Below, piece after piece: positions 2,258 through 52,170 of a stretch of 64,000 bases of DNA. This DNA is from Squalus acanthias. Lineage: Eukaryota. The position numbers and the translations under genes were made by a program. The stretch covers positions 73,286,001 through 73,350,000 of the forward strand of contig CM059432.1 of NCBI GenBank assembly GCA_030390025.1, given 5' to 3'. The stretch's first letter is position 1. Every line of letters begins with the position of its first letter. A model generated the notes under the pieces. That model searched no databases and had not been told where the DNA came from. It saw only the letters and a program-made list of their open reading frames with translations.

Positions 2258-2426
2258 ACGCAACCCCAATTCCCCATTCGACAATAGTGCCACATCTTAC
2301 CTTCCCTCTGTTACTGACCATCACAGTGTCCTCTTGGCCACTATGCTGAAATAAAAGCCACCACAAAAGAAACATTCCAATCCAACTTTATACATAAATC
2401 CCTCCAATATAACCTAACAAAGTCAA

Positions 2427-4233
2427 CTAATCACCCTTGTGCATTCTCTTAGTGCCTGTCTTCAGTGTGCCTTTGCCTGTCCTAGTGCTCGTATGAAGTG
2501 CTACCCCAGTGGCTGCAGCATGGCTGGTGGAGGGATGATGACTTTCAGTGGGGGAGACTGCAGATGGCCTTGCTGGACGACCTCGAGCAGCTCTGAGCCT
2601 AGAAGGCCCGACTGTAGACTGCACCACCTCAGCATAGGTGGCAGAAGTCTGAGCTGTCTGGTTGACAGGCAACAGCAAGGGTACTGGTGGAGTGGCAGTG
2701 GTGGGAGGACGAATGCTGTCATCCTGAGAGAGGACAACAGCTTTGTGCTCCATGGAGCCACTGCCACTCCCCCGGGGCGGCACCTCAGCAATCTTAGTAA
2801 ACTGTTGGAGGACAGATTGCTGGACTGCTGTGACACCCTGCAAGCCCCTTTCAACACTGGTAAACCCAGTCACAATGGCAGCAGTCTGAGCTTGTGTGGC
2901 AGCAAGCTGAGCCTGCATGAGAGCAGTCTGAGCTTGGATGACAGAAATCTGAGCTTTCCCTGCAGCACTCAGATATTGGGTGGCTTCTGCTTGTGCTGCA
3001 ATGGAAGCTGAGACATCGGCCATCAGACTCTGCATCATGGTTGGGTCCACAAGTGCACTAATGGAGTTGGCCATCACTTCCATGCAGGAAATCATGAGCT
3101 CCAAGCTCCGTGCAAAGCCCTGTGCAAGGACTTTGGTGCTGGACTTCTCCATGCTCCTTGACATTGCACTCAGGCTTTCTGGCAGGCCTACCAATGCACC
3201 AAACATTTTGATGTGCATACACATCAGCCTTCTTCTGTAGGCCACCCTATCAAAGTCCTTATGTGAGTCCTCTGCAGCAGAACTCGTGTGTGACCTCACC
3301 CTCCGGGGAGCTGGCACCTGCGCTACCCTTTTCCCCTGCCCTGGCTGCAGCCCACTCGTGCCCGGTGACTCACCACGTGCAGATCCTGCCTCTAGATCTC
3401 TGAAAGGAGAAAGACACAAGGGTAAGGTTGTGGTAAGGGGAGGGTTGAAGCAAGAGGTACATGCTTACACCAACTGCAGCTTGTAAGTCAGAAGAGATTG
3501 TGGGATGAGGGGGAAGTGGGATGTGAGAAGGAGGATTAGGTATGAGGATACTGTCACCTTGGATTGCTTCAGCTCACGGGCTCAGCGATTGCCCTCCCAA
3601 GAATGGCCGGCACTGTCTCCTCCATGGGGGTATGATTATGCAGGCACACCTGTGCCCCTTTGGGTAGCCCTTGCTGGCTCCAATTGTGAGCCACCTTGTT
3701 CTGCAAGAGAAAGGGAAGTGTGTCAGTGAGTGTGGTGCAATGTGTTTGGGTGATATGCCTCTCATGGCTGAATAGCTGACAATGTGCGCAAGCTGTGCAC
3801 ACCAAGTGTGGGTGTGAGGCTTGCAGCAGTGGTAAGTGTGTGAGGGTGAGGTGAAACTATGAATGTGAGGTAAGAGTCATGTTTGGTAGCGATTGTTGGT
3901 AGGTGAGTGATGGGGGTGTGGTATATTGAGCAGTGTGTGAGGCTAGTGGTGCAGATGTTGGGATATGGCATTGGAAGATGAATTCACTGATCTAGACCAC
4001 TCGTGTGAGGTCATTAAACTTCTTCCTGCACTACAGCCAGGTCCTCGGGGCTATACTGCTGGCATTGACAGCTACGGCTATCTGTTCCCATTGCCATTTG
4101 CGATTTTGCCTGGAGGGCCTCCTGGCTCCATGTGGAAAGAGGACCTCTCTCCTCCTATCCACCTTCTGCACCAAGGCCTCCAGAGCTGTATCCAAGAACC
4201 TTGGTGCCCCCTCTCTGCCCAGTTGTGCCATCA
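2427..4233 (-). pseudogene. Harbinger Myb/SANT-like DNA-binding partner gene, 3 exons, disrupted
   Basis: Exon 1 APRFLDTALEALV..WEQIA..RTWL*CRKKFNDL (premature stop); exon 2 NKVAHN after acceptor near 3705; exon 3 ORF 2427-3400 homologous to 34050-34996. Confidence 0.85.
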
Positions 4234-4625
4234 TTAGTTGTTTCTCACTGTCTTCCCCAGCCAATTCAATGAGCTGCTGCAGGCAGAATGCACCTCCCCC
4301 TTAAGAGATGCAGACTGCCTTTAGATAGTGCAGGCTAGCTTTAAGTGGTGCTAGCCTCGCATGAACTTGGGCCTACTGCTAAGCATTCAGCTACTCAGCA
4401 GCGCGTTCAGTGCTGGGTTGAATGCTTCAGTCATGGAAATGAGCAGACAGCATGAAGTTCGTGTTCTGCCTGCATTCCTCTGAACGGGCGCGGGTTGACT
4501 GCACATCACGATCCCCATGCCTGTTTTCGGGAGCTAATTAATTTCTAGGCCTCCTTCTATTCCCACGCATTAGAGTTGCAGGTTTGCACTGTCGGGTTTG
4601 CCAAACCATGCTTTCACCCCATCAA

Positions 4626-10912: not shown

Positions 10913-11660
10913 GGGGGAAAAATTCGGTTGCTTTGTGCCTCCCGTTAGTGCCCTAAGAGGGCGCTAACGGGGCGTAAAGCAACTAGCGCCTGAGCGCGGC
11001 ACTGCCAACGCCTCCCGCGAAACTCAGCGGGAGGTTAGCGGCAGCGGTAACCGGTAGCGCCCTGTGGCGCTGCGCCGCCGGCGATTACATCATCGCCATG
11101 CACAGCGCCCCGCTCGCTGCCCCGGCCGCGATCTTCGGGAGCGCCCCCTGACTTACCGCCGGACGCTATGTTCAACGGGGTCAGGGGGGCCTACCTGCGG
11201 CTGGGGAGGCACTATTTAAAGGCGAGGTGCGGAGCGGCCATTTTTGTTGCTGGCCGCCTGCCAGCACCTGCCTCCGCTCCCGTCCCCTGGCCTCCTTACC
11301 CGCCCCCCCCGCAGTGTGCCGGCTGCGCTCCATGAGCCTGGCACTTCTCTTGGGTGCTGGGCTCTTTTGCCAGCACTCCCAATCCTCGGGGGCCCAGCTG
11401 GGCCCTGGGCCGTGCTGCGCAAGGCCCCTCCCCTTTAATAAGGGGAGGAAGGCAGGCAATACTGCGGCGCGATGTGCGGCAGCGCTATTCCCTCGCAGCG
11501 CCCCAAGAGGAGAGGCGGGGCGCTTCCAGTAGCGCCCCGCTTCCCTCTTGGGGCACTACCACTCAATTTCCATTGCGGGGCGCTAATTTTTCCGGGGCGC
11601 TAAAAGTAGTGCCCCAGCGAAGTTAGCACCCCAAAGGGGGCACAACTCAATTTTTAACCC
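10913..11660. mobile_element. Harbinger MITE, lineage B
   Basis: TIRs GGGGGAAAAATT and AATTTTTAACCC, TSD AAA, repeated TAGCGCC motifs; homologous to 43432-44120. Confidence 0.9.
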
Positions 11661-15523: not shown

Positions 15524-16417
15524 GGGGTAAAAATTCACTTGGTTGCGCCTCCCGTTAGCGCCTTAAGAGGGCGCTAATGGGGCGCAAAGCCGCTAACGCC
15601 CGTGCGCAGCGATGTTTGCACCGCTCGAGAACTTAACTTGAGATTGTGCGGCGGCGCTAAAACTTACCGCTGCGACCACCTGCGCGCGCAGATTGTGACG
15701 TCATTCCATGGTGCAACGCCCTTGTGGCGCCCCGGAGCGGAAATTGAGTGGCGCCCCCTGCCTTACCGCCTGGCGCATCCAACGACCAGAAGACTGGAAC
15801 GCTATCAATCGCTGTGGGGCTGGGGGGGGGCGCTATTTAAAGGGGGCCTCTTCCTGTCTTTTATTGTTGGTGGCATTTTTGAACTACGCATTCTGAGAGA
15901 GAGAGGGAGAGACTTCTGGAGAGATTCAACGTTGTGGGAAGGAGTTTTGGGCACTGAGCAGCACTTTGCAGGTTCATTTTGATTTGCCATTCCTTGTATC
16001 AATTTAGCAGAGACTGTGGGAGCTGCACTCTGAGCTCTTTGCCTGGTACTCTCAATTGTTCTTTCCAGCACATTTGATGTGCAAGTCTCTCCAGGCCGAG
16101 ATTCAAGGCTGCAATGAACAGGATGTGGATGGAAAGCAAGATTAACCATCCCCTTTAAGAACTGGCCCGTGCCATTGTGTGTGTGTTCCATTGCTGACTG
16201 ACATTACATGAGCTTCGCCAGCGCTCTGAGTTAGCGCCTCGCTCCTTGGCCTTTGCGCCTTAAGACAGGTGTGCAGCGCCTGCTTTAGCGCTCCACTCAC
16301 CTCCCGGGGCGGTAAAAGTGAAGTTTCCTGTCAGTGCCGATAATTAGCGCCAGGCGCTAATATTTGCGTCCAGACGATATTTGCGCCCCAAATGGGGCGC
16401 GACCTAATTTCTACCCC
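15524..16417. mobile_element. Harbinger MITE, lineage A (894 bp)
   Basis: TIRs GGGGTAAAAATT and AATTTCTACCCC, TSD CAT; near identical to 40758-41650; ends homologous to 32796-36976. Confidence 0.95.
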
Positions 16418-18961: not shown

Positions 18962-19849
18962 GGGGGAGAAATTCGGTATCGCCCCGTTTGCGGGGCAATT
19001 ATCGGCCGGGCGCAAAGTTTAGCGCCTGGCGCTAATTATCGCCTCTGACAGCAAACTTGGCTTCTATCGCCCCTGGAGGTGATTGGAGCGCAAAATCAGG
19101 CGCTACACACCTCTCTTAAGGCGTTAACACCGAGGAGCGAGGCACTACCTCAGAGAGCTGGAGAAGCTCATGTGATGTCAGTTAGCAATGGAACACAGAC
19201 ACACTGGCGCCGGCCAGTTCTTAAAGGGGAGGGTCAATCTTGCTCTCCATCCACACCCTGCTCATTGCAGCCTTGAATCTCGGCCTGGAGAGACCTGTAC
19301 ATCAAATCTGCTGGAAAGAACAATGGAGAGTACCAGTGAAAGAGCTCTGAGTGCAGCCCCCACAGTCTCTTCTAAATCGATGCAAGGAAGGTCAAATCAA
19401 AATGAACCTGCAAAGTGCTGCTCAGTACCCAAAACTCCTTCACACAGCATTGAATCTCTCCAGAAGTCTCTCTCTCTCTCAGAATGTGTGGTGCAAAAAT
19501 GTCGCCAACAAAAAAAGGCAGGAAGCGGTCGCCTTTAAATAGCGCTCCCCAGTCCCTTCCGACTGCAAAACGTTCCCTTCAACCTGTCGTTGCTAGTGGT
19601 AGGCGGTAAGGCAGTGGGTGCCACTCAATATCTGGTCCGGGGCGCTACCAGGGCGTTGCACGCTCGACTGACGTCACGATCTGCAGGCGCAGGAGATCGT
19701 GGCGGTCGTGTTTAGCGCCGCCACAAAATGCCTGGTCAATTTCGCGAGCGGCGCAAACATCGACGCGCCCGGGCGCTAGTTGTTTTGCGCCCCATTAGCG
19801 CCCTCTTAGGGCACTAACGGGAGGCACAAAGCAACCGAATTTTTCCCCC
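18962..19849. mobile_element. Harbinger MITE, lineage A, diverged copy in the opposite orientation (888 bp)
   Basis: TIRs GGGGGAGAAATTCGGT and ACCGAATTTTTCCCCC; same internal junction as the 15524 and 40758 copies. Confidence 0.9.
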
Positions 19850-19981: not shown

Positions 19982-22477
19982 GGGGTTAACGTGGATAATC
20001 CCCAAAAACGGATGCAGGAATCACGATTAACCCACGCCCGTTCATTGCGATGCAGGCAGCACCTTAAATTTGTGCTACCTGCTTTTGTAAATGATTGCTG
20101 CGTGCAGCCAGTGCTACTCGCGCTGTTCATTGGCTGCATGCTTCAGCAGGGGGCCCGATATCGCCAGTGCCTAGCGCTACTTAAAGGCAGCTTGCACCTC
20201 TTAAAGGGGCGGTGCATTGTAGCTGGAACAGGTGGTGGGAGTTGTTTCAGAAGTGAATCTGTCCTGTGAAAGAGTGAAGGATGGCTGACCATGCGAGAGA
20301 GCGTGCAGCAAGGATCCCAGACACTGCATGGGAGGTCTTGGTGGAAGAGGTGGAAAGAAGAAGAGATGACTTGTATCCTCGAGAGGAGGCCCTCCAGACA
20401 CATGCTCAGGAGGCAGTGGGAAGAAATAGCAGAGGAGGTCATGGATACAGTGCTGGAAGAAGTTCAATGATCTTACATGAGTTGTCAAGGTCAATAAGTT
20501 AATCTTGAAATGGCACATCCGACCAACTGCACTGCTAGCCTCATCCACTGCTAAAATCACTACATCCCCATCACCCACCTACCAACAATCTCTATCAATC
20601 AGGGCTCAACCCTACTATTCATATACTTTACCTCATCCTCACACACTTAGCACTGTCGCAAGCCTCACACCCACAACTCACAGATCGCACACACTGGCAG
20701 CTATTCAGCCATGACAGCCACATCACCCAAACATATTGCAGGATACTCACTGACACGCTTCCCATTTTCTTGCAGGAGGAGGCGGTGCATAACAGGAGGC
20801 AGCAGGAAAGAATTGCAGGAGAACAAGCACGCCTGCATGTTTTAACCCCCATGGAGGAGACAGTGCTGGTCATCATGGAAAGGGGCATCGCTGAGGCCAT
20901 GGCCACTGGTGGCGCTGAAGCGATTGATGATGAGAGTATCAGCATATCTAATCCTCCTTCTCTCATCCCACTTCCCCATCCTCCTTCTCTCATCCCACTT
21001 CCCCCTCATCCTTCAATTTCCTCTGATTGGGAAGCTGTAGAAGGTGTAAGCAGGCACTTCTTACTTTCTCCTCTCCACTACCACAACCCAACCCTTGTCT
21101 TTTTTTCATTTCAGATACCCAAGAACTGGAACTTGCCCAGTTAGTGGAGGAAGGGGAGGAAGAAAGTGACAGTGGCTCCATGGAGTACGAACCTGCTGTC
21201 CTCTCTCAGGATGACAGCATTTGTTCTCCCACCACTGCCACACTGCCAGTGCCCTTGCTGTTGCCTGTCAGCCAGCCAGCCCAGACTGTTGCAGCCCAGG
21301 CCAAGATGGTGCAGTCTGAAGCCGGGTCTTCCAGGCCCAGAGCTGCTCGAGGTCACCCTCAAAGGCCATCTGAAGTGCTTCCTCCTCAGCTTCTTGCCTG
21401 ATAGGTGCTGGCAAGGACTGCTCCTTCATAATGGTAAGGTTGTGCAGCATGCAGCATACCACCACAAATCTTGAGACCTGCTCAGCTGAGTACTGCAGAG
21501 CTCCTCCAGAGTGGTGCAGGTGGCGGAAGCATTGCGTGAGGATGCCGATGGTGTGCTCTGTAATGTTCCTTGTGGCAGAATGGTTCTCATTGTAGGCCTG
21601 CTGTGCACTTGTGCCGTGGGTTCCGGATCGGGGTCATGAGCCATGTCATTAGTGGATAACCCTTGTCACCCAGTAGCCAACCTTTGACTTGCTGTGGTGG
21701 TTCAAATACAGCTGGCACAGAGGACTGTCACAGAATGAAGGAATTGTGACTACTGCCAGGATACCGGGCATTGGCCTGCATGATGCGCTGCCTGTGGTCG
21801 CACACCAGCTGCACATTGAGGGGGTGGAATCCATTTCCGTTCTGGAAAATGGCTGAGTTGACATGAGGCAGACGCAAAGCAATGTGAATACAGTCAATGG
21901 CACCCTGCACCATGAGGAAGCCTGCAATCCGAGCAAACCAAGCGGAAAACCTATCAGGTCACCCATGTCTGGAAGCAGCTTGTTTCAGCATAAGCCTTTA
22001 AATCACCAAAAAAGTACTTCAGCACCAGCCAGACCACTCCCTGTAGACTATTCAAACTGTAGACAAGTATAGAAAAGCTCCAAAAATGCCTAGATTTGCA
22101 CCAGCAGACAGAAGAAATAATCCAGCAACTAACCTGTAAGTAGTTCATGATCCCTTTAAGTAGCGCTGGTGGGGGGTCCTTGATGCCATTTAACATTTTG
22201 TTCAGCTGTGTGAGGTGAAGTAGGCTGCAGCGTGGAGCTCAAAAAGTGCAGCGCTGGCATCAAATCAGCGTTGCACACTGATTGATGTCATAATCTGTCT
22301 GCTCTTCATGCTGCTGGTGGTCGTTAGGTGAGCGTGCGCGCAAACCCCTTTACCAAGATGGCATCCGCTACACTTCCCGTTGGAAGTGCGCACATGCATC
22401 TTGGATTCCGTTTTCCACTGTTAGGAGGCCGTGTAGTGCCTAAAAAAAGGGTGTTACTGAGCCCAAATTAGCTACCC
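19982..22477. mobile_element. Decayed, internally deleted Harbinger (Myb remnants on + 20281-21375; transposase remnants on - about 21380-21960)
   Basis: MADHARERAARIPDTAWEVLVEEVERRRDDLYP; AVHNRRQQER; MVQGAIDCIHIAL..LNVQLVCDH..YPGSSH. Confidence 0.85.
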
Positions 22478-25868: not shown

Positions 25869-26084
25869 CAACCTTCTGTCTCAGAGGCAGGAGTGCTACC
25901 AACTGAGCCACGGCTGACGTTCCAAGAACAAATAAAAAAATACATTTCCAAGCAGTTTCTAGTGACCTTTTTCATATTAGTCAGGCAGCAGCTCACCATT
26001 GTATAAAGAAAGTCACTCATGCTTTCTTCATTTGAGCCTTGCCGTTTAATGCCTGCTTCATGGAACCTAGAAAACAAAGAGAGA

Positions 26085-26545
26085 GCAATCCAATTCTAAA
26101 GACTGACAGGGTTTCCACAGGTGAAAGAAGCAATTGACGGAACGCATGTGTCACTCAAAGCCCGATATGTCAACCTCCTCAATTTCATAAACAAGGAAGG
26201 ATTTGATTCAAATGACACGCAGCCAGAGTGTAATGCCAGTCACCTTATCCTGCACATTAATGCTGCTATCTGGGAAGATATCATAACGCTTTCATCATGC
26301 ACCAATCCATTATAACAGCTTGGATGACTCAAAACCACATATCAGGATGGTTGTTTGAGGATCAGGGTTATTCTCTACAGCCGTAGCTTATGACTTTAGT
26401 ACAGCATCTGCAGACAGAGGGGGAGAACAAATATACTGAGGCCCATGGCACTACAGGAACTGTGATAGAGAAGACCAATGGTATTCTGAACTCTCATTTC
26501 AGGTGTCATGATAAATCCGGTGGAGCCCCGCGGTACAGCCCATCC
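26085..26545 (+). pseudogene. Old Harbinger transposase fragment
   Basis: AIDGTHVSLKA, GWLFEDQGY, IEKTNGIL..FRC.DKSGGA. Confidence 0.75.
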
Positions 26546-26691
26546 AGGACTACATGAATGCTAAAAAGCGGAAGCAGCATGCTATAGACAGGGCTAAGCA
26601 ATCCCACAATTAACGGATCAGATCAAAGCTCTGCAGTCCTGCCACATCCAGTCGTGAATGGTGGTGGACCATGAACAACTAACGGGAGGAG

Positions 26692-29483
26692 TGTCGTAAG
26701 AATGAGCCTTACGCGTGGTGAACTTAAAGTAAGCTTTAATCAACTAAAAAGGTGCTACATACAAAAGAGGTCTTACTCTGGATCCAACTGATCAGTCCAG
26801 TATTTATCCTGGACTAATCACAGGAAGTGATGCAATAAAGTTCGAGTCACAGGAAGCAGTGTTGTGTTACCACATTCTCCCCCCCCCCCAAAAGATTAGG
26901 AGGCCGGGATGCTCCCTCCATTTCGTAGCCGCTGGACGAGGGAGAGCCGCACCCGTTTGGGTTCTCGTAGCGGTAGAGGGCCCCTAGCCCGTTTACCCGC
27001 CGTGGGCCGTGGACCAGAGTCCGAGTGATCCAGCCCGCTCTGTGAGGGGTCAGGACGATCCTGACTGTGTACTGGTGCCCGAACGGGTGTCGGGCAGGGC
27101 TGTGGCAGATCCGTTTCTGAGCGTACGGTACGGGGTGGATCGTGGCTGCGCGTGCGAGCCCCGATGGGCTCATAGTCAGTCTGCCCCAGGTCGGCACGCT
27201 GGAGTGAGGTACCAGCCGGCGTCAGATCCAGATCGTGATGAGAGGCACCTGGCGAGCCCAGAGATGTGCCTGGTACAATATCATCCCCTGGTGTCCCTCT
27301 ATGTTTCGGCGGGCAGGGAGCCAGATCCCGCAATGACACGGTAGATTCCCGACCGTCAGGATACCGAATATAGGCGTAGGTAGGGTTGACGTCAGTGAGC
27401 TCAACCTCATCTACCAGGGGGTCATTCTTAGACGCCCGGACATATCTTCGGAGTAGCACTGGTCCCGGTGCAGTCAGCCACGAAGGGAGAGATATCCCAT
27501 AGGATGAGCGACGCTGAAATCGGAAGAACCGTTCATGAGGCGTCGTATTTGTGGCGGTCGAAAGGAGGGACCGTGTGGAGTGTAATGCGTCTGGAAGTAC
27601 TGCTTCCCATTGCTGGTTGGGTAGGCCCCGAGATCTCAAAGCCAGACGTACCGCATTCCAGATGATAGCGTTATAACGCTCGACTTGCCCATTCCCGACC
27701 GGATGATAAGGCGTCGTTTTGCTGGCAGCAATACCCCGTTCCGAGAGATAGGCCTTGAGTTCTCCTGACATAAAAGAAGGGCCCCGATCCGAATGAACAT
27801 AGGATGCCATGCCACAGAAAGCAAATACCTGCTCAAGGCAGCTGATAACCGTGGTCGTCAGCATATTGGGGCAGGGAAAGGCAAACGGAAAACGGGAATA
27901 CTCATCGACCATGGTCAATAGATAAGTGTTGCGAGTTGAAGAGGGCAACGGCCCCTTAAAATCGATGCTAAGCCGTTGCATTGGCTGGGTCGCATGTATG
28001 AGTATACCACCCGAGGGGCGGAAAAACTGAGGTTTCAATTCCGCACAGACTCTGCAGTCCGAGCACATCTTCTTTACATCCCCGGTAGAGAATGGGAGAT
28101 TTCGGGACCGCACGAAGTGTAGCTTTAACTCTGCAACAATCTGTTCCCTAATGAAACTATCAGTGCTACCTGAGTCAATTAAGGCATCTAAAGTATGTCC
28201 ATTAATTGATGCTTTTGTAGCTGCATGGAATAGGTTCTGAGGACAAGCAGCTGTAATTGGTGTCGTTGCACAAAGAGTGGCTGAAACTCTAGGTGTGTTT
28301 CTTCGAGAGGAAACCCAAGAGGAAGCACGATAGATTTTAGCCGGAACATCTTGATAGGCCCTTACCGGGGCAGTTCGGTAGGACTTAGCTTGATAAGCCC
28401 TCGTAGAGGCTCTTGATAGGCAAACCTTTGCAAAATGACCCTTTTTGTTGCAATGACTGCAAAACGCATTGCGAGCAGGGCAGAATTTCCGAGGGTGAAA
28501 CTCATCACCACAAAAGAAGCATTTCTTAGATTGCCAAGAGGCTGCCACAGTGGGGTCATCATCCTCTTCATCAGTGACGTCATCACATTGATCGTCAGGG
28601 ATAAAGACCTCCCTAATAGAGTTCACCTGTGGCCTCTTAAATTGCCTGACTGTAGTTAAGGCAGTAGACCGAGGTCTGGGCACTGTATAAAGGTCTGCAT
28701 TTCTTTTTGCCAGATCTAGAGAGCAAGCCATGTCATAAGCTCTCTGAAGCTCAAGTGTCTTACTTTCCAGTAGACACTGGCGTATAAATGGGGAGGCAAG
28801 CCCGCAGATGAAAGCATCACGGATCATTTCTTCACGGTACAGCTCAGCTGAGGCCGCCTGAAAGTTACAGTCCATACTAAGTCTGCGAAGCTCTTGGAGG
28901 AATTTATCAATGGATTCCTCCGGCCCTTGTTGGGCTGTAGCTAGTAGATGTCTGGCATAGACCTCATTCGGTGTCTTAGTATATAGTCTCTTAAGCGTCC
29001 GAATTGCCTCCTCGTAACTGCCCCATTCCTCCACATACTGAAATAAATTCGGGGTGACACAGTTGATGAGTATCCGCAACTTTGAGTCATCATCAGCCTT
29101 GCAATATTCAAGAAAATTGTCAAACGTGCGATACCAGTGTTTCCACACCTTACCGGCTGCTGGGGTGTTTGGGTCCAAGTCAAGACGCGATGGTTTAAGG
29201 ATGTTTTCCATGATGGGTGATTCCCTGGATCCTTAGTTCCGAGTTCGTCCAAAAAGTTTGAGTGCGAAGTTTTTCAAAGTTGATTAAATTGTCGTAAGAA
29301 TGAGCCTTACGCGTGGTGAACTTAAAGTAAGCTTTAATCAACTAAAAAGGTGCTACATACAAAAGAGGTCTTACTCTATGCCTCTCCAGGATCCAACTGA
29401 TCAGTCCAGTATTTATCCTGGACTAATCACAGGAAGTGATGCAATAAAGTTCGAGTCACAGGAAGCTGTATTGTGTTACCACA
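26692..29483 (-). mobile_element. Ty3/Gypsy-type LTR retrotransposon with RT/RNaseH deleted
   Basis: TG..CA LTRs at 26692-26874 and 29290-29483 (two substitutions plus one 11-bp indel), TSD AGGAG, polypurine tract 26875-26889. Confidence 0.95.
26896..29211 (-). CDS. 771-aa Gag - partial protease - integrase fusion ORF
   Basis: Two CCHC knuckles, LIDSGS protease motif, then directly CxxC and a D,D,E core (SIDFKGP, HSDRG, GQVERYN); no RT motifs; no chromodomain. Confidence 0.85.
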   Translation of the reverse strand: MENILKPSRLDLDPNTPAAGKVWKHWYRTFDNFLEYCKADDDSKLRILINCVTPNLFQYVEEWGSYEEAIRTLKRLYTKTPNEVYARHLLATAQQGPEESIDKFLQELRRLSMDCNFQAASAELYREEMIRDAFICGLASPFIRQCLLESKTLELQRAYDMACSLDLAKRNADLYTVPRPRSTALTTVRQFKRPQVNSIREVFIPDDQCDDVTDEEDDDPTVAASWQSKKCFFCGDEFHPRKFCPARNAFCSHCNKKGHFAKVCLSRASTRAYQAKSYRTAPVRAYQDVPAKIYRASSWVSSRRNTPRVSATLCATTPITAACPQNLFHAATKASINGHTLDALIDSGSTDSFIREQIVAELKLHFVRSRNLPFSTGDVKKMCSDCRVCAELKPQFFRPSGGILIHATQPMQRLSIDFKGPLPSSTRNTYLLTMVDEYSRFPFAFPCPNMLTTTVISCLEQVFAFCGMASYVHSDRGPSFMSGELKAYLSERGIAASKTTPYHPVGNGQVERYNAIIWNAVRLALRSRGLPNQQWEAVLPDALHSTRSLLSTATNTTPHERFFRFQRRSSYGISLPSWLTAPGPVLLRRYVRASKNDPLVDEVELTDVNPTYAYIRYPDGRESTVSLRDLAPCPPKHRGTPGDDIVPGTSLGSPGASHHDLDLTPAGTSLQRADLGQTDYEPIGARTRSHDPPRTVRSETDLPQPCPTPVRAPVHSQDRPDPSQSGLDHSDSGPRPTAGKRARGPLPLREPKRVRLSLVQRLRNGGSIPAS

Positions 29484-31616: not shown

Positions 31617-32795
31617 TGTAAGGGTTCGGACTGGTGCGAGGTGAGGCTTTCGTTGCCTGCACTATTGCTTGCTCTGGTCTCCGGCCAGACTTTTGCAATA
31701 AGCACCTGTGAGTGGTTCGACCGACTCGCCCTTACGGTTCTGACACCTGGACTTAGATGCAAGGAGCAGTAATGCAGAGAAAGACTCAAATAGACCTGGT
31801 TGAATAGCACGAAATGAATGCCTTTATTGCATGGTGTCCAAAATAATGAAATACATGTCATAGGTGCAGATCAAAGAGAGTACCAGTATACACACGTTTA
31901 TAAAACTTGGTCTATGGAAATGGGGAACACACGACACATCGTAAAAGGGGGAACACATTATACATTAACCTTAGGAACCACCCTCCCTTAATATGCCTAA
32001 ACTACGTCTGGATTTGTAGGATCAGGAAACATGCTCACCACTCGGCTCACTTCGGAAACTTAAAATGAGGCTCTCAGCTCGTTTCGCTGCAGCGCCTGGC
32101 TGTCACGTGGCTGTAAGGGCTTCTGCACCCGACTTGTTTACTCTCGCTGCCGCGAATGGGTCCACTTGAGACGGCCCCGGTAAAGTTCGTCGCGGATGGC
32201 TCGGGCTACCCGCTCAAAGAGCCGGAGGGTAAGCCAGACTCCCTGATGTCATGAAGTAGTTTGTGGAATTCAAACCGGGTCATGAAGTAGTCTGTAGAAT
32301 TCGAACTGGTGGACTCTGCCGTTTATCTTCGGGCGCGGTCGGGGTTTACTGACCGTAGCGCCACGTGGAATTTCTTCTCGTCTTTCTTCTCGTCACTCGG
32401 GCCTCGCTTGGCCGAGATTCTCTTCTTCCTCGCCACCGACGGCTGGTCGCTCGGGAACACACCGCTGTGTTGCCCTGATGGGTCCGGACACCGTTTACCG
32501 ACGATCGGGATGGTGTACCCTACTGCCTGCCGTGTCGAGGTGGCTCGTTCTGAGGTTCCGTTTCTGGCCGACACGGACCACGAACAACGAACTCGAACTT
32601 GACCTCCACCCAACACTCGAATAACCGACCAGCACAGCACCGCCGAAGGAACCAGCGCAAGAGAAGAGGCCGATTCCTCTTTTCTCCGTAACTGACCGTA
32701 ACTCGTCACTGTAACTGCTTCATCTCCAACTCGTAACTGTGTCTGTGTCTGTTTCAAAACTCACTCCCGATGAACATTTGCCCTCTATAGTTATA
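31617..32795 (-). mobile_element. Partial long LTR (U5/R side), copy A
   Basis: Terminal TGTAAGGG, minus-strand AATAAA near 31825, TATA-like TATAACTATA at 32786-32795; motifs shared with 62365-63875; 31617-31959 is an inverted copy of 36977-37332. Confidence 0.7.
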
Positions 32796-33153
32796 GGGGG
32801 AAAAATTCAGTCGCGCCCCGTTTGGGGCGCACATATCGTCCGGGCGCAAAAATTAGCGCCTGGCGCTAATTATCGCCACTGACTGGAAACTTCACTTTTA
32901 ACGCCCCTGGAGGTGATTGGAGCGCTAAATCAGGCGCTGCACACCTGTCTTAAGGCGCAAAGGCCGAGGAGTGAGGCGCTAACTCAGAGCGCGAGCGCAG
33001 CGCAGGTGCTGCCAGTTAGCGAGGGAACAGAGACACACTGGCGCCGGCCAGTTCTTAAAGGGGGGGGGCGATCTTGCTCCCCAGCCACACACTGCTCATT
33101 GCAGCCTTGAATCTCGGCCTGGAGAGACCTGTGAATCCATTTTGCAGCCAAGG

Positions 33154-34996
33154 ATGGAGAGGGTGAGAGAACGAGCTCAGCGCTTCACCGAGCGGGCCTT
33201 GGATGCTCTGGTTGGCGCGGTGGAGCGCCGAAGAGCAATACTGTACCCAGAGAGTGGCAGGAGGCCTTTGCCGCGCGACTACAGAAGAGTGTGGAGGGAG
33301 GTGGCTCAGCGCGTCTCCTCCAGGAGCATGGTGCCCAGGACCCATGTCCAATGCCGGAAAAAGTTCAACGACCTCACTCGGGTCGTCAGGGTGAGTGGCT
33401 TTTTTGCAATACCTCTCCATCCCTCCATCTCAACCTCACTCTATGGCCAGAGGGTCTTAAAACCACAATTAACAACACTCATCCAACACCTATGGCCCTT
33501 TCATGAAGCACACACACACATTCCATACTTTGCATACAGTAAGGGCTATTCACCTATGGGAGGCACATCAGGCAAGACCATGCTGTATACAGTAAGGGCT
33601 ATTCACCTATGGGAGGCACATCAGGCAAGACCATGGCTGTATACAGTAAGGGCTATTCACCTATGGGAGGCACATCAGGCAAGACCATGGCTGTATATTT
33701 ACTCAGACGCCGTCCTTTTTCTTGCAGGCCAAGCTGGCGCATAATAGGAGACAGCAGCAACGGACGGGTGGAGGGCGGCCTCAGCTGCAACCCCTCAGCG
33801 ATCTGGAGGAGCGCGTCCACAGGATTGTGGCAAGCCGGGTGATCGGTCCCGTCGCCACTGGAGACGCCGACCCCGTTCTGGACAGCAATGGTAAGGTCAT
33901 CACCTTTTTGTCCTCTGTCCTTCCACTTGTCCCTCACAACACCAGCCTTTGACACTTTCAATCCAACTTGCTAACTCGCTGCACTTATTCCTCCCTTACT
34001 GCCACCCTGTCCTCACGCTAAAGCCACTCTTGTACCTCCCTGCTTTCAGATGGTGATTCACCAGCTGAGGAGACGGGCCCTGAAGCTGCCAGTGGGAGTG
34101 AAGCTGCAGCCGAGGAGGAAGAGGAAGCCGGAGCATCAGTGCCACCCTCTCCCGAGGAAGCCCATGCCGACACTGGGAACACGCCTTCCCTGGAGGGGAG
34201 CAGGGGGGAAGGGTCTGATGAGGGTGAAGCTCCAGGACCCAGCGGGCTGCAGCAACGCGATGGGGGTAGGGAAGCTCGGGGGCCTTCTCCCCGGAGGGAG
34301 AGTATGCCAGCGAGTCCTGCTGCACTGGACGCAGAGGAGGAGCGGCTGATCGCGGAAATGAACACCCAGGCGGTGGGCATGCACACTGAGCTCATGGCTG
34401 CAGTGGGTAGGGTGCCCGAATGCATTGAAGTACTGGCAAGGAGTGTGGAGCACTTCGCTGCAGCGCAGGCGGATGCGACACTGAAGCTCAGTGCTGCAAT
34501 TCAATCTCAGACTGCTCTCATGCAGACTCAGATTGAGGCCACGCGAGTACTGTCTGCTGCCATCCTCGCTGGTTCGTTCACATTTCCCCGGGGCTCTCAC
34601 CGCGCCGCAGCAGGCCAGCAATCTGTGCTCCAGCAGTTTGCTCCGGATGCTGAGGTGCTGCCCCGTGGGAGTGCCAGTGTGCCGGTCGAGCAGGGAGTTG
34701 CTATCCTCGCTCAAGATGACAGCATTCCTGCTGCCACCACTGTCACTTCTCCACTGCAGTTGCCACCGCCTGTAGGACAGACTGCTGCCGCCCATGCAGA
34801 GTTGGTGCAGTCTGCAGCCGGGCCCTCCAGGCCCAGAGCTGGTCGAGGCCGTCCCTCAAGGGCATCTGCATTGTCAGGGCCTGACAGTCAGCAGCCTTCC
34901 ACCAGCCTTGCTGCAGCCACTGAGGTCCCATTGCGGAGGAGCAGTAGGGTAAGAAGGGGGGAAGGGCGCACGGGAAGGAGTTCACCCTCGATGTAG
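33154..34996 (+). CDS. Myb/SANT-like DNA-binding partner protein, 448 aa; exons 33154-33390, 33728-33890, 34050-34996
   Basis: GT-AG introns with matching phases (0 and 1) give one uninterrupted frame; RFTERALDALV..W.EVA..QCRKKFNDL motif, acidic linker, coiled-coil-like region. Confidence 0.85.
33534..33697 (+). repeat. Tandem repeat, 3 x 53-54 bp, in intron 1 of the Myb gene
   Basis: Unit ATACAGTAAGGGCTATTCACCTATGGGAGGCACATCAGGCAAGACCATG(G)CTGT starts at 33534, 33587 and 33641. Confidence 0.95.
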
Positions 34997-35307
34997 GAGG
35001 TGTGACAAAATGCTGGTCATTTTTTTATTAAAGGCCGAGGTTCGTGGTCAAACTTTTGTTGAGTGTTTTGCACATGATCTCCAGGTTGTGAGAACCAGTT
35101 ATGGTAATGACTGTTTTTTTGTGTTTATTTGTATGAGTTTGTCATGAAGAAATGACACACACAGAGTTTGTAAAATAAATAAGTTTTGGTACTCAAAATA
35201 TACATGTTTGGTGTTTGGAATCAGTGGTGCCTTGGCCGGCTTAGGGGTTGCGTGTTGGGATCATTCATGCTGTTCTCAATGGCAGAAGCCATTTCCACAG
35301 CAGGGGC

Positions 35308-35406
35308 CTAGAAGTGGCTTGCTATCAGCCGCTGACGGACGGCCCTTGCAGTTTCACCATTGTGGGCCGCCCTCACGCCTTGGTGCTGCTGCTGATCATC
35401 CTCCTC

Positions 35407-35437
<31 letters not shown>

Positions 35438-36468
35438 GGTGGTGCTCCAAGGCCTGGTGGCATTGGCTGGGTCCTGAGGATTGCCATGTTATGCAGCATG
35501 CAGCACACATCTACGATGCTGGAAACTCGCTCAGGCGAGTACTGCAGGGCTCCTCCAGAATGGTCGAGACAGCGGAACCGTTGCTTGAGCACGCCGATTG
35601 TGTGCTCCATGATGTTCCTGGTAGCTTGATGGCTCTCGTTGTACCGCAGCTCAGCAGGGGTGTTGGGCGTACGGAGTGGTGTCATCAGCCAGGTGCGCAG
35701 TGGATACCCCTTGTCCCCGAGAAGCCAACCAACTGGCTGATGCGGTGCCTCGAAAAGTTCTGCCACAGTAGTCTGGCACAGGATAAAAGCATCGTGGCAG
35801 CTGCCAGGATAGTGGGCATTGACAGCGAGTATCAGCTGTCTGTGGTCACAGACCAACTGAACATTCAAGGAATGGAACCCCTTTCTGTTCCGGAAATCCT
35901 CGGCATTCTCATGCGGAGCACGCAAAGCCACATGCGTGCAGTCAATGGCGCCCTGCACCATGGGGAAGCCCGCTATCCTCGCAAAGCCCAGAGCGCGGTC
36001 ACGCTGCTTGTCTGGGGTCATGGGGAAAGAGATGAACTCTCGTCTCCTTTTAAAGAGGGCATTTGTGACTTTCCTGATGCAGCAGTGCACCGCGAACTGG
36101 GAGATATTGGCGATGTCCCGAACAGCAGATTGAAATGAGCCAGTAGCATAAAAGTTCAGAGCCACTGTGACCTTCACTGCCACCGACAGAGACGTCCTGG
36201 ACCTCAGCTGAGGCTGCAGATCTGGCTGCAGCAGGTGGCAGAGCTCAGTGACCACCTCCTTGCTGAAGCGCAGCCTTCGCAAACACTGCTCCTCAGACAT
36301 ATGAATGTAGGAGAGCTGTTCACGATATACCCTGGGAGGGTAAGCTCTCCTGTACAGACGCCTGTTGGCCCTCCTCCGTCTGGCCATCATTGCCACTCTC
36401 TCTCTGCGTCTCTGTGTCCTCCGATTCAGCTGGCGCAGGACGACGCCCCCCATCAGTGCAGCCCCCAT
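35308..36468 (-). CDS. Harbinger DDE transposase (HARBI1-like), 386 aa, intact
   Basis: GAIDCTH, LGDKGY and IMEHTIG catalytic motifs; N-terminal HTH region; upstream TATTTAAA near 36660-36667. Confidence 0.92.
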
Positions 36469-36976
36469 ATCTCTAAGCAAGCAAAGTTATGAAGGCCAGA
36501 AACCAAAGTACCAGCGAAGTTAGGATGAGTAGCCAAAACTACCTGACACAGCGTTGGCTCAATGCAGAAGTCTCTCTTTCTCTCTCTCCGAATCTCTCTC
36601 TCTCTCAGAACGAGTGGTGCAAAAATGTCCACCACAGAGAAAGACAGGAAGAGGCCCCCTTTAAATAGCGCCCCCCCCAGCCCCACAGCGAATGATAGCG
36701 TTCCACTCTACCGGTCGTTGGATGCGCCAGGCGGTAAGGATGGGGGCGCCACTGAAATTCTGCTCCGGGGTGCCACAAGGGCGTTGCACTTTCGTATGAC
36801 GTCACAATCTGCGCGCGCAAGAGATCGCGGCGATAAAGTTTAGCGCCGCCGCTAAATGTCTAGTTAAGTTCCCGAGCGGCGCAAACATCGCTGCGCCCGG
36901 GCGCTAGCTGCTTTGCGCCCCATTAGCGCCCTCTTAAGGCGCTAACGGGAGGCGCAACCAACTGAATTTTTCCCCC

Positions 36977-37332
36977 AATGTGTTCCCCTTTCTACGATGT
37001 GCCGTGTGTTCTCCATTTCCACAGACCAAGTTTTATGAATGTATATATACTTGTACTATCGTTGATTTGCGCCTATGACATGTATTTCATGATTTTAGAC
37101 GCCATGCAATAAAGATTTCCATTTCGTACTATTCAACCGGGTCTATTTGAGTTTTTCTCTGCATTACTGCTCCCTGCACCTAAGTCCAGTGTTAGAACCG
37201 TAAGGGCGAGTGGGTCGAACCACTCACAGGTGCTTATTGCAAAAAGGCTGGCCGGAGACCAGAGCAAGCAATAGTATTAGGCAACGAAGGCCTAACCTCG
37301 CACCAGCACCGTCTGAGACACGCCCCCTTACA
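36977..37332 (+). mobile_element. Partial long LTR (3' end), copy B
   Basis: Contains AATAAA, ends CCCTTACA; inverted homolog of 31617-31959. Confidence 0.75.
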
Positions 37333-38640
37333 GGAGGTAGGTTGTAGTGAGTGAGGGGAGCAGAGAAATTGAGACGGCCGATGTCACACCGGCAGTTTGC
37401 AATGAAAAGATCTAGGGAGGTTAAGAGGCCAGAGGGAGGGGTCCAGGTAGAACGAGAATTCTGAAAATGGGAGAAAGGGTCAGCTGTGTGGGGGGAAGAC
37501 TCCTGGCCAAAGAAGTGGGCACGGAGGCGAAGGCGGCGGAAAAAGAGCTCAGCATCGTGCCGAGCTCGAAATTCATTGAGATGGGGGCGTAAGGGGATGA
37601 AGCTCAGGCCTTTGCTAAGGACTGATCGTTTGGGGTCAGAGAGGGGAAGGTCAGAGGGGATAGTGAAAACACAGCAGGGGCTGGGATTGGAAGAAGGGAT
37701 GGGGTCAGTGGAAAGTGAAGGGGAAGAAGGTTCCAGAGGGATGTTTGTGTCCAAGAGTTGTTGAAGCTTGCGATCCTTGACACCTGAAAGGAAGAAAAAA
37801 AGTTTTTTGTTAAAGTGCTGGATGAGGCGAAGGATGAAATGGAACTGCAGACCAGGACAGCTTTGCGATAGAGTGAGTCGGTGCTGCTGAAGAGAGAGGT
37901 CGAGAGTGTTCATGTGGCGTCGCATGGCATTCAGCGTGGATCTCAGGATATGGCGAGAGCAGTGGTTCGAGGAACGCTGAATATCTTGGAGATATCTGTA
38001 GTCCTGGGTGGTTCCAAAACACGAAGGGTGGAATTTCAGTTGGAATCCACGTGGAGTAAGTCAGAGCCAGAGACAGTTGCTGAGAAAAGATGTGTGGCTG
38101 TGAAAGCGAGTTTTGGTAGATACCTGATCAAACACGAGAAAGCAATGAAGATGAACAAGGTAAAAGAGACAAACGGAAATCCCGTCGGAGAGAGGAGCAG
38201 AACTTCTTCAAGGTGGGCATTCTTAGAAGAGAAGTGACAGTGAATTAAACACTAATACAAAAGCAAAATACTGTGGATGCTGGAAATCTGAAATAAAAAC
38301 AGAAAATGCTGGAAATACTCAGTAGGTGAGGCAACATCTGTGGAGAGAGAAACAGAGTTAATGTTTCAGGTCGATGACCCTTCGTCAGAACTGGAAAAAG
38401 CTGGAGATGGAACAGGTTTTTAAGCAAGTGTAGGGGTAGGGAAAGCGGGGAGGGGAGTAAAGAACAAAAGGGAAGGTCTGTGATAGGATAGAAGGCAGTA
38501 GAGATTAAGAGATATTAAGAGAGATTAAGAGGTGGTGCAAGGCAAAAGGAGATGGTATTGGGACAAGTTAAGAAACAAAAGATGGCTCTAGATGAAGTGT
38601 AAATGGCACTGGCAGAATGAGAGACAGCTGTCATGTGAGA
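37333..38640 (-). mobile_element. Penelope-like element, 5' half (terminal repeat about 38245-38640; ORF start near 38220)
   Basis: VLSKGLSFIP..ELFFRRLRLRAHF N-terminal motif; hammerhead core at about 38355-38392 with a stem III mutation. Confidence 0.85.
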
Positions 38641-40757: not shown

Positions 40758-41650
40758 GGGGTAAAAATTCACTTGGTTGCGCCTCCCGTTAGCGCCTTAA
40801 GAGGGCGCTAATGGGGCGCAAAGCCGCTAACGCCCGTGCGCAGCGATGTTTGCGCCGCTCGAGAACTTAACTTGAGATTGTGCGGCGGCGCTAAAACTTA
40901 CCGCTGCGACCACCTGCGCGCGCAGATTGCGACGTCATTCCATGGTGCAACGCCCTTGGGGCGCCCCGTAGCGGAAATTGAGTGGCGCCCCCTGCCTTAC
41001 CGCCTGGCGCTTCCAACGACCAGAAGACTGGAACGCTATCAATCGCTGTGGGGCTGGGGGGGGCGCTATTTAAAGGGGGCCTCTTCCGGTCTTTTATTGT
41101 TGGTGGCATTTTTGAAGTACGCATTCTGAGAGAGAGAGGGAGAGACTTCTGGAGAGATTCAACGTTCTGTGAAGGAGTTTTGGGTACTGAGCAGCACTTT
41201 GCAGGTTCATTTTGATTTGCCATTCCTTGTATCGATTTAGCAGAGAATGTGGGAGCTGCACTCTGAGCTCCTTGCCTGGTACTCTCCATTGTTCTTTCCA
41301 GCACATTTGATGTGCAAGTCTCTCCAGGCCGAGATTCAAGGCAGCAATGAACAGGATGTGGATGGAAAGCAAGATTAACCATCCCCTTTAAGAACTGGCC
41401 CGTGCCATTGTGTGTGTGTTCCATTGCTGACTGACATTACATGAGCTTCGCCAGCGCTCCGAGTTAGCGCCTCACTCCTTGGCCTTTGCGCCTTAAGAGA
41501 GGTGTGCAGCGCCTGCTTTAGTGCTCCACTCACCTCCCGGGGCGGTAAAAGTGAAGTTTCCTGTCAGTGCCGATAATTAGCGCCAGGCGCTAATATTTGC
41601 GTCCGGACGATATTTGCGCCCCAAATGGGGCACGACCTAATTTCTACCCC
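40758..41650. mobile_element. Harbinger MITE, lineage A (893 bp)
   Basis: Same TIRs as the 15524 copy, TSD TAT. Confidence 0.95.
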
Positions 41651-43431: not shown

Positions 43432-44120
43432 GGGGGAAAAGTTGGGTTGCTTTGCGTCTCCCGTTAGTGCCCCGCGAAATTCAGGGGGAGGTTAGCGGCG
43501 GCGGTAGCCGGTAGCATCCTGCGGCGCTGCGCCTCCGGCGATGACGTCATCGCCATGCGCAGCGCCCCGCTCGCGCCCCGGCTGCAAACTTCGCTCGCGC
43601 ACCCTGACCTACCGCCGAACGCTATGTCCGACAGGGTCAGGGTGCCATGTTTACGGCCGGGGCGACGTAAATTAAAGGGCAGCTGCCGAGCGGCCATTTT
43701 TTTTTGGGCTGCCTACCAGCACCTGGCCCCTCTCGCCTCCTCCTGTGGGGTGCCGGCCACGATCGGTCAGCCCGGCACTCCTCTTGAGTGCCGGGCTCTT
43801 TTGCCGGCGCCCCGCTCCCCGGTGGTCCAGCAAGGCCCCTGTGCACGCTGCGCTAGGCCCCTTCCCTTTAATCAGGGGAGGGAGGCCTGTAGTACCACGG
43901 CGCTACGTGCCAACGCGTGTGGCGCTGCTGCACATAGCGCTGCGATAGTCAATGGGAGCGCCCCAAGAGGGAGGGGGAACGCTTCCAGTAGCGACCCGTT
44001 TCCTGCTTGGAGCGCTACCATTCCATTTTGGGCGTGGGAGCACTAACTTTTTCGGGGTGCTAAAAGTAGCGCCCTGGCGAAGGTAGCGCCCCAAAGTGGG
44101 AGCGACCCAATTTTTCCCCC
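43432..44120. mobile_element. Harbinger MITE, lineage B
   Basis: TIRs GGGGGAAAAGTTGGGT and ACCCAATTTTTCCCCC; homologous to 10913-11660. Confidence 0.9.
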
Positions 44121-49390: not shown

Positions 49391-49789
49391 CTTGGTTGCC
49401 GGGTGGCAACTTGCCTTTTCAGTTGCTTGTTGGTGAATGGGAAGACATGAATTGACAGGGACCAAAGGGGGGATGTGCAATGGGTGGGTGGTTGTTTACA
49501 GGACAGCTTTGTGTCAGTGGGATTGGGGGGATGGGGGTGTGGCGGGGGGAGAGTGGCCGTTGGATGTGTTTGTTATATCAGTCCAGTGGTGGTGACTAAC
49601 TTAAACTTACAGCTATAATGGAGTCCCTGGCATTCCGGGCAGCATTGTGAGTGGCTGATGCTGCATTGGAGTTGCCATCTTCCACCTCCTCAGATTCATC
49701 TGCAGACGATGTGTGCCCAGTGCTTTGTTCCTCCTGCAGCTCCAATCCTCACTGCTGCACAATGTTGTGCAGAGCACAGCACACCACGA

Positions 49790-50727
49790 TCATTCTGGAG
49801 ATCCTGGCTGGTGACTACTGAAGGGCACCTCCAGATTGGTCCAGGCACCTGAAGCTCATCTTGAGCATGCCGATAGCTTGCTCAATGCCACATCTGGTAA
49901 TGTGTGGCCACCAGGTCCAGCAGGGAGTAGGTCTTCTTCTAGAAGGCTTCAGATGTCTGCCACCATCTGATGTGACAATCTGAGCCTCTGGAAGCAACGC
50001 CTCAATTAAAAAACTCTCATCCTTGTTTTCAAATCCCTCCATGGCCTCACCCCTCCCTATCTCTGTAATCTCCTCCAGCCCTCTAATCCCCCAAGATCTC
50101 TGCACTCTGCCAATTCTGGTCTCTTGAACATCCCCGATTTGAATTGCTCCACCATTGGTGGCCGTGCCTTTAGCTGCTTAAGTCCTAAGTTCTGGAATTC
50201 CCTCCCTAAATCTCTCCGCCTCTCTACTTCTCTTTCCTCCTTTAAGACGCTCATTAAAACCTACATCTTTAACCAAGCTTTTGGTCAACTGCCTAACATC
50301 TCCTTATAAGCTCAGTGTCAAAATTTTGTTTTTTGATAACGCTCCTGTGAAGCGCCTTGGGATGTTTTATTACGTTAAAGGCTCTATAAAATGTAAGTTG
50401 TTGTTGTTCTTCCGAGAGGTCAAAGAAGCTGATCTTCTCCCTTTAGGAACCATTGGTTAGGCCGTGGTAGATCATGGAATAATGAGCGGAGCATGCTGCA
50501 CCCAGTGACAGCAGGATCCTAAATAGGCATTAGGTCCCTGATTATCATATTTAACGGAGTCTAACGCCTGTTTCAGGCAGGCGCCCCGGACACTCGGAAA
50601 TTACCGTCTGTCAGTTCGGCAGCTGATGTACTTCTGGGGTGAATTGGGCACAGGAAATTCCCGGAAATTTGATCCCATATGCATTTTGCGCCCAAAAACA
50701 GATGCGACGGGGACCAATTACTCCTCA
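49790..50727 (-). mobile_element. Decayed Harbinger remnant (transposase piece 49790-49905, terminus near 50727) with an L2 insert
   Basis: IEQAIGMLKMSFRCLDQSGGALQ; terminal CCAATTACTCCTC. Confidence 0.6.
49985..50410 (+). mobile_element. L2 LINE 3' fragment
   Basis: IGGRAFSCLSPKFWNSLP; (TTG)n tail. Confidence 0.85.
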
Positions 50728-50837
50728 CTTGACATTGGATGGATGATCATAGACAGGAGGTGTTGGCCGGTGGCTTTACATATAGAAAGGTTGATGTTAG
50801 TCTGTAATGTACAATAAACACTTCACTGTGTTGGACA

Positions 50838-52170
50838 GGGCTGGGAAGTTCCACTGTGGAGTTATTTTGGGGAAGGGGTGAAACAGGCGCTAAGTGGGCG
50901 CTGTGCTAATAAGATGCGCCTGTTTAAAAGTCTGGATTTAGCCCGCAATTTAGGTGTTAATTGCTGATTACCATGATTTAAATGTGCCTGCAGGCGCTAC
51001 AACAGAGGCCTGCACATTTAGCATTCAGGCGTTGATTCGGAGCAATTTTCCTGGTGCAGTATTTAACGCCTCCATGCACGCACTTCCACTGAAGTTGTGG
51101 AGTGCGCTGGCTGACAGACGGCTCAGGGACCGAGGGAGAGGGCCCACCGGTTCTCAGAGGTGGCACTGGAGGTCCTGGTGGAGGAGATACAGCGGAGGAG
51201 AGATGTCCTGTACTCGCGGGGGGAAAGAGGCCACAGAGGCAACTAATACAGTGGATGTGGGAGGAGATGGCTAAAGATGTCACAGCCAGGAGCACTGTCC
51301 AAAGGACATAGATTTTAGGGGAATCAAAGGATATGGAGATCGGGCAGGAAAGTGGAGTTGAGGTCGATGATCAGCCATGATCTTATTGAATGGCGGAGCA
51401 GGCTCGAGGGGCCGCATGGCCTACTCCTGCTCTTACTTCTTATGTTCTTATGTTCTTATACACACACCCCACAGAATGGCATCCTTCACAGGTACCACTC
51501 ATGCCTCAGACATATATCACAACTCTTCAACCCACAAACACATCTGTCAATACACTTATTCACAATCACCACTTTTTCTCTTGCAGGACAAGGTAGCACA
51601 TAACAGGCGCCAGCAGCACCTGACCGGGAGCGGGGAAGCACGACTCCATGAGATCACTCCCCTTGGTAATCGGGAGGGGATGGCAGACGCCATGGCCACA
51701 GGCAGAGCAGGGGACATATCGCCTAGAGGTACGTGGCCACTCCAGCTTCCTTACATATCCGCAACTACAGCAACAACACAAAAGCAAAATACTGCGGATG
51801 CTGGAAATCTGAAATAAAAACAGAAAATGCTGGAAATGCTCAGCAGGTCAGGCAGCATCTGTGGAGAGAGAAACAGAGTTAACGTTTCAGGTTGATGAGT
51901 TCTGACGAAAGTTCATTGACCTGAAACGTTAACTCTGTTGCTCTCTCCACAGGTACTGCCCCCAACTATTCCTGATCCCTAATTCCCCCAAGACTATCCT
52001 CACTCTCAAGCTCCATATGGTCTCATCACACACATCCTCCTATAGTGGCCACACGCGCTGCACCCTAACCCTTCTAGCTTTATCATTGCAGGCTTCCAGG
52101 AGCAAGATCCGCCTCACCCCCCTAGTGGAAGAGGAGGAGGAGGAGGAAAGCGAGGAGGAAGGCATTGCAT
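50838..52170 (+). mobile_element. Decayed Harbinger Myb-gene end, interrupted by a CR1 tail (51310-51456) and a Penelope hairpin (51775-51960)
   Basis: Exon-2-like DKVAHNRRQQHLTGSGEARLHEITPL after TTTCTCTTGCAG; acidic exon 3 start. Confidence 0.7.

Follow-up and report, generated by a model that had tools for sequence, protein, structure and literature searches.

A two-gene Harbinger-type transposon of the shark Squalus acanthias with both reading frames open, probably an ageing copy of an abundant family

We analysed a 64,000-nucleotide stretch of the Squalus acanthias genome (GenBank assembly GCA_030390025.1, contig CM059432.1, positions 73,286,001 to 73,350,000 of the forward strand), called the window below, in which a Harbinger-type DNA transposon carries two convergent genes, one for a DDE transposase and one for a Myb/SANT partner protein (Table 1). 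An earlier interpretation made from the letters alone (the sequence-only reading) had described this element as a naturally intact, potentially active vertebrate copy and a possible helper for the related MITEs (miniature transposable elements bounded by inverted repeats) around it. The window and four public sequencing runs, from which the family evidence was drawn, lead us to consider it fairly likely that the element is an ageing, rearranged copy of an abundant Harbinger family, still open-reading rather than a demonstrated source of activity.

Table 1. Features of the Harbinger-type element and related MITEs in the window (TIR, terminal inverted repeat; TSD, target site duplication; ORF, open reading frame)
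Feature	Position	Strand	Details
Full-length two-ORF Harbinger-type element	32796..36976		4181 bp; convergent genes; no 3-bp TSD (ATA left, AAT right)
Left TIR	32796..32811	+	16 bp
Left subterminal region	32812..33055		5 GGCGCWA-type motif copies
Myb/SANT partner exon 1	33154..33390	+	aa 1-79, trihelix domain; Myb_DNA-bind_5, E 1.6e-10
Myb partner intron 1	33391..33727	+	337 nt, GT..AG (predicted); 54-bp tandem triplication inside
Myb partner exon 2	33728..33890	+	joined frame; homolog alignment
Myb partner intron 2	33891..34049	+	159 nt, GT..AG; skipped in X13, X18
Myb partner exon 3, to stop	34050..34996	+	acidic linker, helical region, low-complexity tail
Overlapping 3' regions of both genes	35024..35179		polyadenylation-like hexamers (predicted): + 35027, 35174; - 35024, 35124
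DDE transposase	35308..36468	-	386 aa; D176, D252, E288; Asp320 where family reads have Val
Right subterminal region	36717..36960		7 GGCGCWA-type motif copies
Right TIR	36961..36976	-	16 bp, identical to left TIR
MITE, more distant	10913..11660	-	748 bp; TSD AAA
MITE	15524..16417	-	894 bp; TSD CAT; ends 87-90% identical to long element
MITE	18962..19849	+	888 bp; no TSD (TAA left, TTG right); ends 83-84% identical to long element
MITE	40758..41650	-	893 bp; TSD TAT; ends 83-89% identical to long element
MITE, more distant	43432..44120	-	689 bp; no TSD (TAT left, AAA right)

The element has the DDE transposase, the Myb/SANT second ORF and the TIRs by which Harbinger elements are broadly defined (PMC9179366). 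Its TIRs agree at 16 of 16 positions, as the sequence-only reading had stated, and their length lies below the 25-50 bp usually quoted, although PMC4482050 gives a range of 5-1042. The TIR pattern was detected 11 times in the window when 3 mismatches or fewer were allowed, against 0.85 expected, a count reached in none of 100 shuffles. The two 260-bp ends hold 12 copies of the GGCGCWA-type motif and the 3661-bp interior only one (shuffle control at the ends: mean 0.5, maximum 5 in 500 shuffles), suggesting that the subterminal motifs are candidate Myb binding sites. TATA-like words are present around 36665 (- strand) and 33055 (+ strand), and directly upstream of the transposase start 70 nt bounded by GT..AG and containing a branch-like motif (36473-36542, - strand) are a possible intron of the 5' untranslated region.

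The three joined exons of the Myb/SANT gene encode 448 amino acids with zero internal stops, and the splice phases join as had been proposed. The sawshark protein model P0122 (377 aa) is collinear with this protein over residues 5-335 across both exon junctions (37% identity over 365 columns, E 5e-71), and both intron acceptors are found at the same places in a decayed copy within the window. According to the contig data, intron 2 is skipped in three contigs of run X13 and one of run X18, both taken by us as RNA by guess, and in none of the DNA runs X1 and X6; contigs were placed at 90% likeness, so that splicing holds for the family and not for a specific copy. None of the 15 joints listed, of 65, corresponds to intron 1, and an X13 contig (33250-33496) runs unspliced across its donor. 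The prediction of two spliced introns was therefore borne out for intron 2, at family level. Within intron 1, positions 33534-33697 consist of a 54-bp unit repeated 3.1 times with 99% matches, which appears to be a recent tandem duplication.

The transposase matches the DDE_Tnp_4 profile (E 4e-40), and D176, D252 and E288 sit within the expected catalytic motifs, in agreement with the three-motif claim of the earlier reading. Its structure model has a predicted local distance difference test score (pLDDT) of 89. The fold search gave weak matches only, to DDE transposases and integrases, and a relative of solved structure was found neither by sequence search nor by fold at E 0.001 or better. 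The closest named relatives are from sharks and rays, the best at 71% identity over 79% of the query, in keeping with a shark-like host. The search of all proteins, where the rows are nameless, gave no full-length relative closer than this named shark and ray set, and there is accordingly no sign in it of a near-identical non-shark donor; metagenome scans with the TIR pattern and with the protein gave no matches.

Residue 320 is Asp in the element and Val in all of the depth of all four runs. Among 103 homologs this column holds 74 Val, 14 Ile and 1 Asp and is 96% hydrophobic, and Asp320 is the only charged residue of the transposase in its 71 strongly hydrophobic columns. It falls in the middle of a helix (312-331) of the high-confidence model, suggesting that the change is probably damaging to folding. 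In the predicted helix-turn-helix region Arg117 replaces Gly, and Arg occurs there in 2 of 110 homologs.

The Harbinger superfamily generally makes a 3-bp TSD (PMC9179366), and an extended target preference is known for it, of 15 bp in vertebrates (PMC2836001). Here the left flank triplet is ATA and the right AAT, with no duplication. The related MITEs had been described as having clean TSDs, which is correct for three of the five (CAT, TAT and AAA); the other two have TAA and TTG, and TAT and AAA. In zebrafish Harbinger3_DR the TSD is CWG, unlike those of this window. A palindromic target pattern, approximately A-S-W-N-[NWN]-N-W-S-T, was detected at the flanks of the elements starting at 10913, 15524, 18962, 32796, 40758 and 43432: in the 12 half-sites, A stands seven bases out in 11, C or G follows in 11 and A or T next in 10, and the middle of the triplet is A or T in all 12. 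The half-sites score 44 of 48 positions against a null mean of 22, a difference whose significance is optimistic, as the pattern was derived from the same 12 sites. The TWA duplication of the narrow PIF/Harbinger group (PMC4482050) is seen in 0 of 6 elements, and in this small sample 0 of 3 clean TSDs fit the NuwaI, NuwaII and Pangu patterns (CWG, C|TNA|G, ANT) on either strand.

Despite the absent TSD, both flanks of the element are in-register halves of the preferred site of the family; on the left 4 of 4 positions fit in register, versus 1 of 3 under an assumed 2-bp loss. In-register flanks without duplication occur at 3 of the 6 elements in the window, which hints at frequent recombination between copies. 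With divergence of about 1%, two changes inside one triplet would be improbable, and chimeric flanks are the simpler reading: each flank is probably one half of a different insertion site, the two having been brought together when copies recombined, and the absent TSD would reflect a later loss. The setting agrees with recombined flanks, since a CR1 fragment further to the left breaks off at 31612 and neither side carries its 176-bp tail. A 340-bp repeat that starts TGTAAGGG is present in two inverted copies (89%), at 31617-31959 and 36977-37332, and both lose their match exactly at the Harbinger target triplet. A solo long terminal repeat (LTR) at 32116-37332 with a 1-bp duplication was tried as the host sequence and rejected, because contigs cross 32116 and the in-register half-site fits better; for a local inversion with the MITE at 43432, only one of the two flank triplets fits.

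The family is highly abundant, has many closely similar copies and is nearly identical among several labelled organisms. At least half of the sampled words of the 5.5-kb stretch were present in 9 of the 24 runs listed; these represent four studies and five labelled organisms, and one of the studies may be the source of the window itself. In X1 alone, 39,443 contigs were placed on this stretch, including 7,069 with a likeness of at least 99%, contig depth not being the same as copy number. Close kinship, slow evolution or transfer could each explain the sharing among labelled organisms.

Among the 40 of 290 variant rows covered, 27 lie inside the element, and in at least 14 of these the base of the window differs from at least 90% of the X1 depth. 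Ten of these differences are coding, with 9 replacements and 1 silent, giving no sign of selection. The variant rows set a divergence floor of about 0.3%, and the best word share, 0.74, would correspond to about 1% if missing words are changes, an estimate that also includes flanks and sampling loss. In simulated neutral decay, both frames, starts, splice sites and the DDE residues stayed intact in 76%, 63% and 41% of cases at 0.3%, 0.5% and 1% divergence, and in 47%, 28% and 8% with an assumed indel rate. Both frames thus often survive neutrally at 0.3-1%, and open frames argue only weakly for activity. With the mutation rate of another species, the epaulette shark (7e-10 changes per base in each generation; PMC10587355), the age of the element would be roughly 5-14 million generations. 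A fresh insertion of an active element would have a preserved TSD and almost no distance to its sister copies, and the element shows neither. The description as potentially active holds only in the wide usage of the literature, where two intact ORFs suffice, and is weakened by the missing TSD, Asp320 and the distance of about 0.3-1% from the family.

At their ends, the three MITEs close to 890 bp in length share 83-90% identity with the element and the other two less, their TIRs differ from that of the element at 1-4 of 16 positions, and they retain most of the GGCGCWA-type motif copies, often at matching distances from the end. By sequence they appear to be deletion derivatives of sister subfamilies. 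The closest pair of MITEs, at 40758 and 15524, shows 22 differences over 894 columns, and the former lies within a CR1 long interspersed element (LINE), at its short-repeat 3' end. X1 contigs that fuse the left to the right end (33063 to 36662) look like further MITE-type derivatives, closer to the element than those of the window. The genome is full of relatives and nothing links the MITEs to this copy, so the specific helper role that had been suggested is unsupported, the ends being 83-90% identical at best and the TIRs variant. Cross-mobilisation, by analogy with Ping and Pong, is plausible.

In characterised Harbinger systems, the Myb-like protein binds the element ends and the N-terminal part of the transposase and imports the transposase into the nucleus (PMC9179366, PMC9392472), and both proteins are necessary and sufficient for transposition (PMC9179366). 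If the shark family followed the mechanism of the superfamily, the spliced Myb/SANT protein would bind the repeated near-end motifs, carry the transposase into the nucleus and place it on the TIRs. The pair would then insert DNA at the palindromic site, approximately A-S-W-N-[3 bp]-N-W-S-T, with duplication of the central 3 bp, and sister copies with internal deletions would be mobilised in trans. Binding between the two shark proteins may be expected by analogy with these systems; the complex prediction gave a score of 0.12. The present copy has most likely been immobile for long, accumulating amino-acid changes including the probably damaging Asp320, and probably owes its two flanks to two insertion sites recombined between copies.

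Several observations weigh against ageing and decay of this copy. The perfect TIRs and the subterminal motifs are in place, and the observed/expected CpG ratio is 0.59 versus 0.29-0.30 in two decayed copies, so that the element is less eroded. Of the 91 columns with at least 80% conservation among 120 homologs, the transposase retains all 91, with 0 conserved-column misses versus 2-22 in each of 54 near-complete homologs, and at least one charged residue in strongly hydrophobic columns also occurs in 17 of the 61 homologs scored. The cover of 40 of the 290 variant rows and the optimistic half-site significance, both given above, count on the same side. The runs may come from other individuals or species and contigs lose rare variants, and the copy-specific changes could mark a minor subfamily or assembly errors. 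If the copy belonged to a young minor subfamily and still worked autonomously, with tolerated differences and the ability to mobilise itself and related MITEs, this would account for the kept columns and perfect TIRs, and would also be consistent with the right-end motif positions common to the element and the two youngest MITEs, with the spliced family RNA and with the cross-mobilisation of Ping and Pong among related PIF/Harbinger elements (PMC2836001). We find it unlikely, given that Asp320 is seen in none of the four runs, that the TSD is absent, that replacements outnumber silent changes 9 to 1 among the listed copy-specific coding differences, and that the MITE TIRs depart from that of the element.

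An assembly artefact, in which a collapsed or mis-joined repeat produced the mismatched flanks and base errors the rare residues, so that the true locus is perhaps a clean young insertion, appears quite improbable to us, even though the family is extremely repetitive, the outer flanks come from different cut repeats and the 32 contig pieces listed include no joint or spanning contig at the element junctions. Two MITEs of less than 1 kb show similar in-register, non-duplicated flanks, suggesting a biological process, and the differences are scattered through both genes and the non-coding parts. Domestication as a HARBI1/NAIF1-like gene pair, with the frames held open by host selection, would fit the two open frames, the very well conserved transposase and the database name of the homologs, "putative nuclease HARBI1". 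It is very improbable in view of the perfect TIRs, the MITE relatives, the repeat-level depth and silent changes that are not in excess; moreover, in a quick tree of 54 of the 120 homologs the transposase groups with many sawshark paralogs, outside any cross-species short-branch clade. We therefore retain the reading of an ageing, recombined copy. The copy itself is probably inactive and the family might be active, and whether the family, perhaps not through this copy, still transposes in living sharks is in our estimate doubtful but conceivable.

The element resembles zebrafish Harbinger3_DR and Harbinger3N_DR (Sinzelle et al. 2008, cited in PMC2836001 and PMC9392472) in its DDE transposase, Myb-like partner and short TIRs, and also in its non-autonomous derivatives and extended target preference (PMC2836001). 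Harbinger3_DR was rebuilt from a consensus and is active in human cells, whereas the shark copy is natural. A natural vertebrate precedent is Harbinger-Snek of sea kraits, which has short non-autonomous variants and 269 copies with two fully intact ORFs in L. colubrina; L. laticaudata has 1 such copy, with RNA covering its two ORFs, and activity was inferred (PMC8437027). In contrast to Harbinger-Snek, which entered the snake lineage by horizontal transfer, the relatives of the shark element are widespread in sharks and rays. The claim of a naturally intact vertebrate copy thus stands as to the open frames and not as to novelty; intact vertebrate Harbingers are already known, and the shark family is a further case of a known type.

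Coelacanth LatiHarb1 and the newt Harbingers similarly show large expansions with many subfamilies and non-autonomous elements (PMC3787270, PMC5741667), and in the newt Myb and transposase groups are expressed (PMC5741667); the shark family is a separate lineage. Han et al. described 214 PIF/Harbinger families, 88 of them termed potentially active from two intact ORFs (PMC4482050). The element shares with the groups of the PHIS scheme (PIF/Harbinger, NuwaI, NuwaII, Pangu) its two ORFs and a length near the mean of about 4.1 kb (the painted-turtle Harbinger-1_CPB, with both ORFs present, has 4103 bp), while the TSDs of the window fit none of TWA, CWG, C|TNA|G and ANT consistently (PMC4482050). 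Both protein types are also found in HARBI1 and the NAIF1/MSANTD genes, which are domesticated and at conserved positions, unlike the TIR-bounded repeat copy described here (PMC9392472).

A 2022 survey listed the elephant shark as without Harbinger and called for checks of other cartilaginous fishes (PMC9179366), and the superfamily receives a single line in the genome papers on whale shark (PMC8455134) and grey reef shark (PMC12498223), while PMC4255032 contains no passage on Harbinger. In our literature search, with subscription journals and Repbase outside its scope, we found no shark Harbinger that had been described as a family or tested for activity, and no naturally working two-component Harbinger from a cartilaginous fish. 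The shark family now has a full gene model, one intron supported by RNA (RNA by guess), a target preference and MITE relatives, and the locus is a ready design for an activity assay. Given slow shark mutation, an open two-gene transposon may be millions of generations old, and "intact" is a weak indication of "active". If the family still moves, it would be a testable natural two-component DNA transposon from a cartilaginous fish: high-copy, transcribed, spliced, nearly unchanged in several species, with a target preference of about 11-15 bp and young MITEs, and living in a lineage with one of the lowest vertebrate mutation rates measured.

The Rfam scan of the window gave no matches. The ORF at 37335-38060 may be Penelope-like, with no Pfam match and weak Atlas leads only. 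An LTR retrotransposon-like element at 26692-29483 has terminal repeats 93% identical and a 778-codon open frame with protease and integrase domains and no reverse transcriptase match, and it appears to be internally deleted. Four decayed two-gene or partial Harbinger bodies (660-4496, 20029-22275, 25946-26554 and 49623-51673) have 37-69% protein identity to the transposase, in pieces, suggesting several waves of the superfamily inside 64 kb.

The quick tree additionally contains well-supported short-branch HARBI1-like clades that join distant sharks and rays, mostly with one protein per species (P0007/P0014/P0015/P0017/P0019/P0026/P0104; P0023/P0024/P0067; P0040/P0044; P0009/P0012; P0004/P0005); these resemble additional elasmobranch genes domesticated from Harbinger transposases. 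The 523-aa sawshark model P0010 combines a Myb domain and a Harbinger transposase in one chain, either a real fusion or an annotation artefact.

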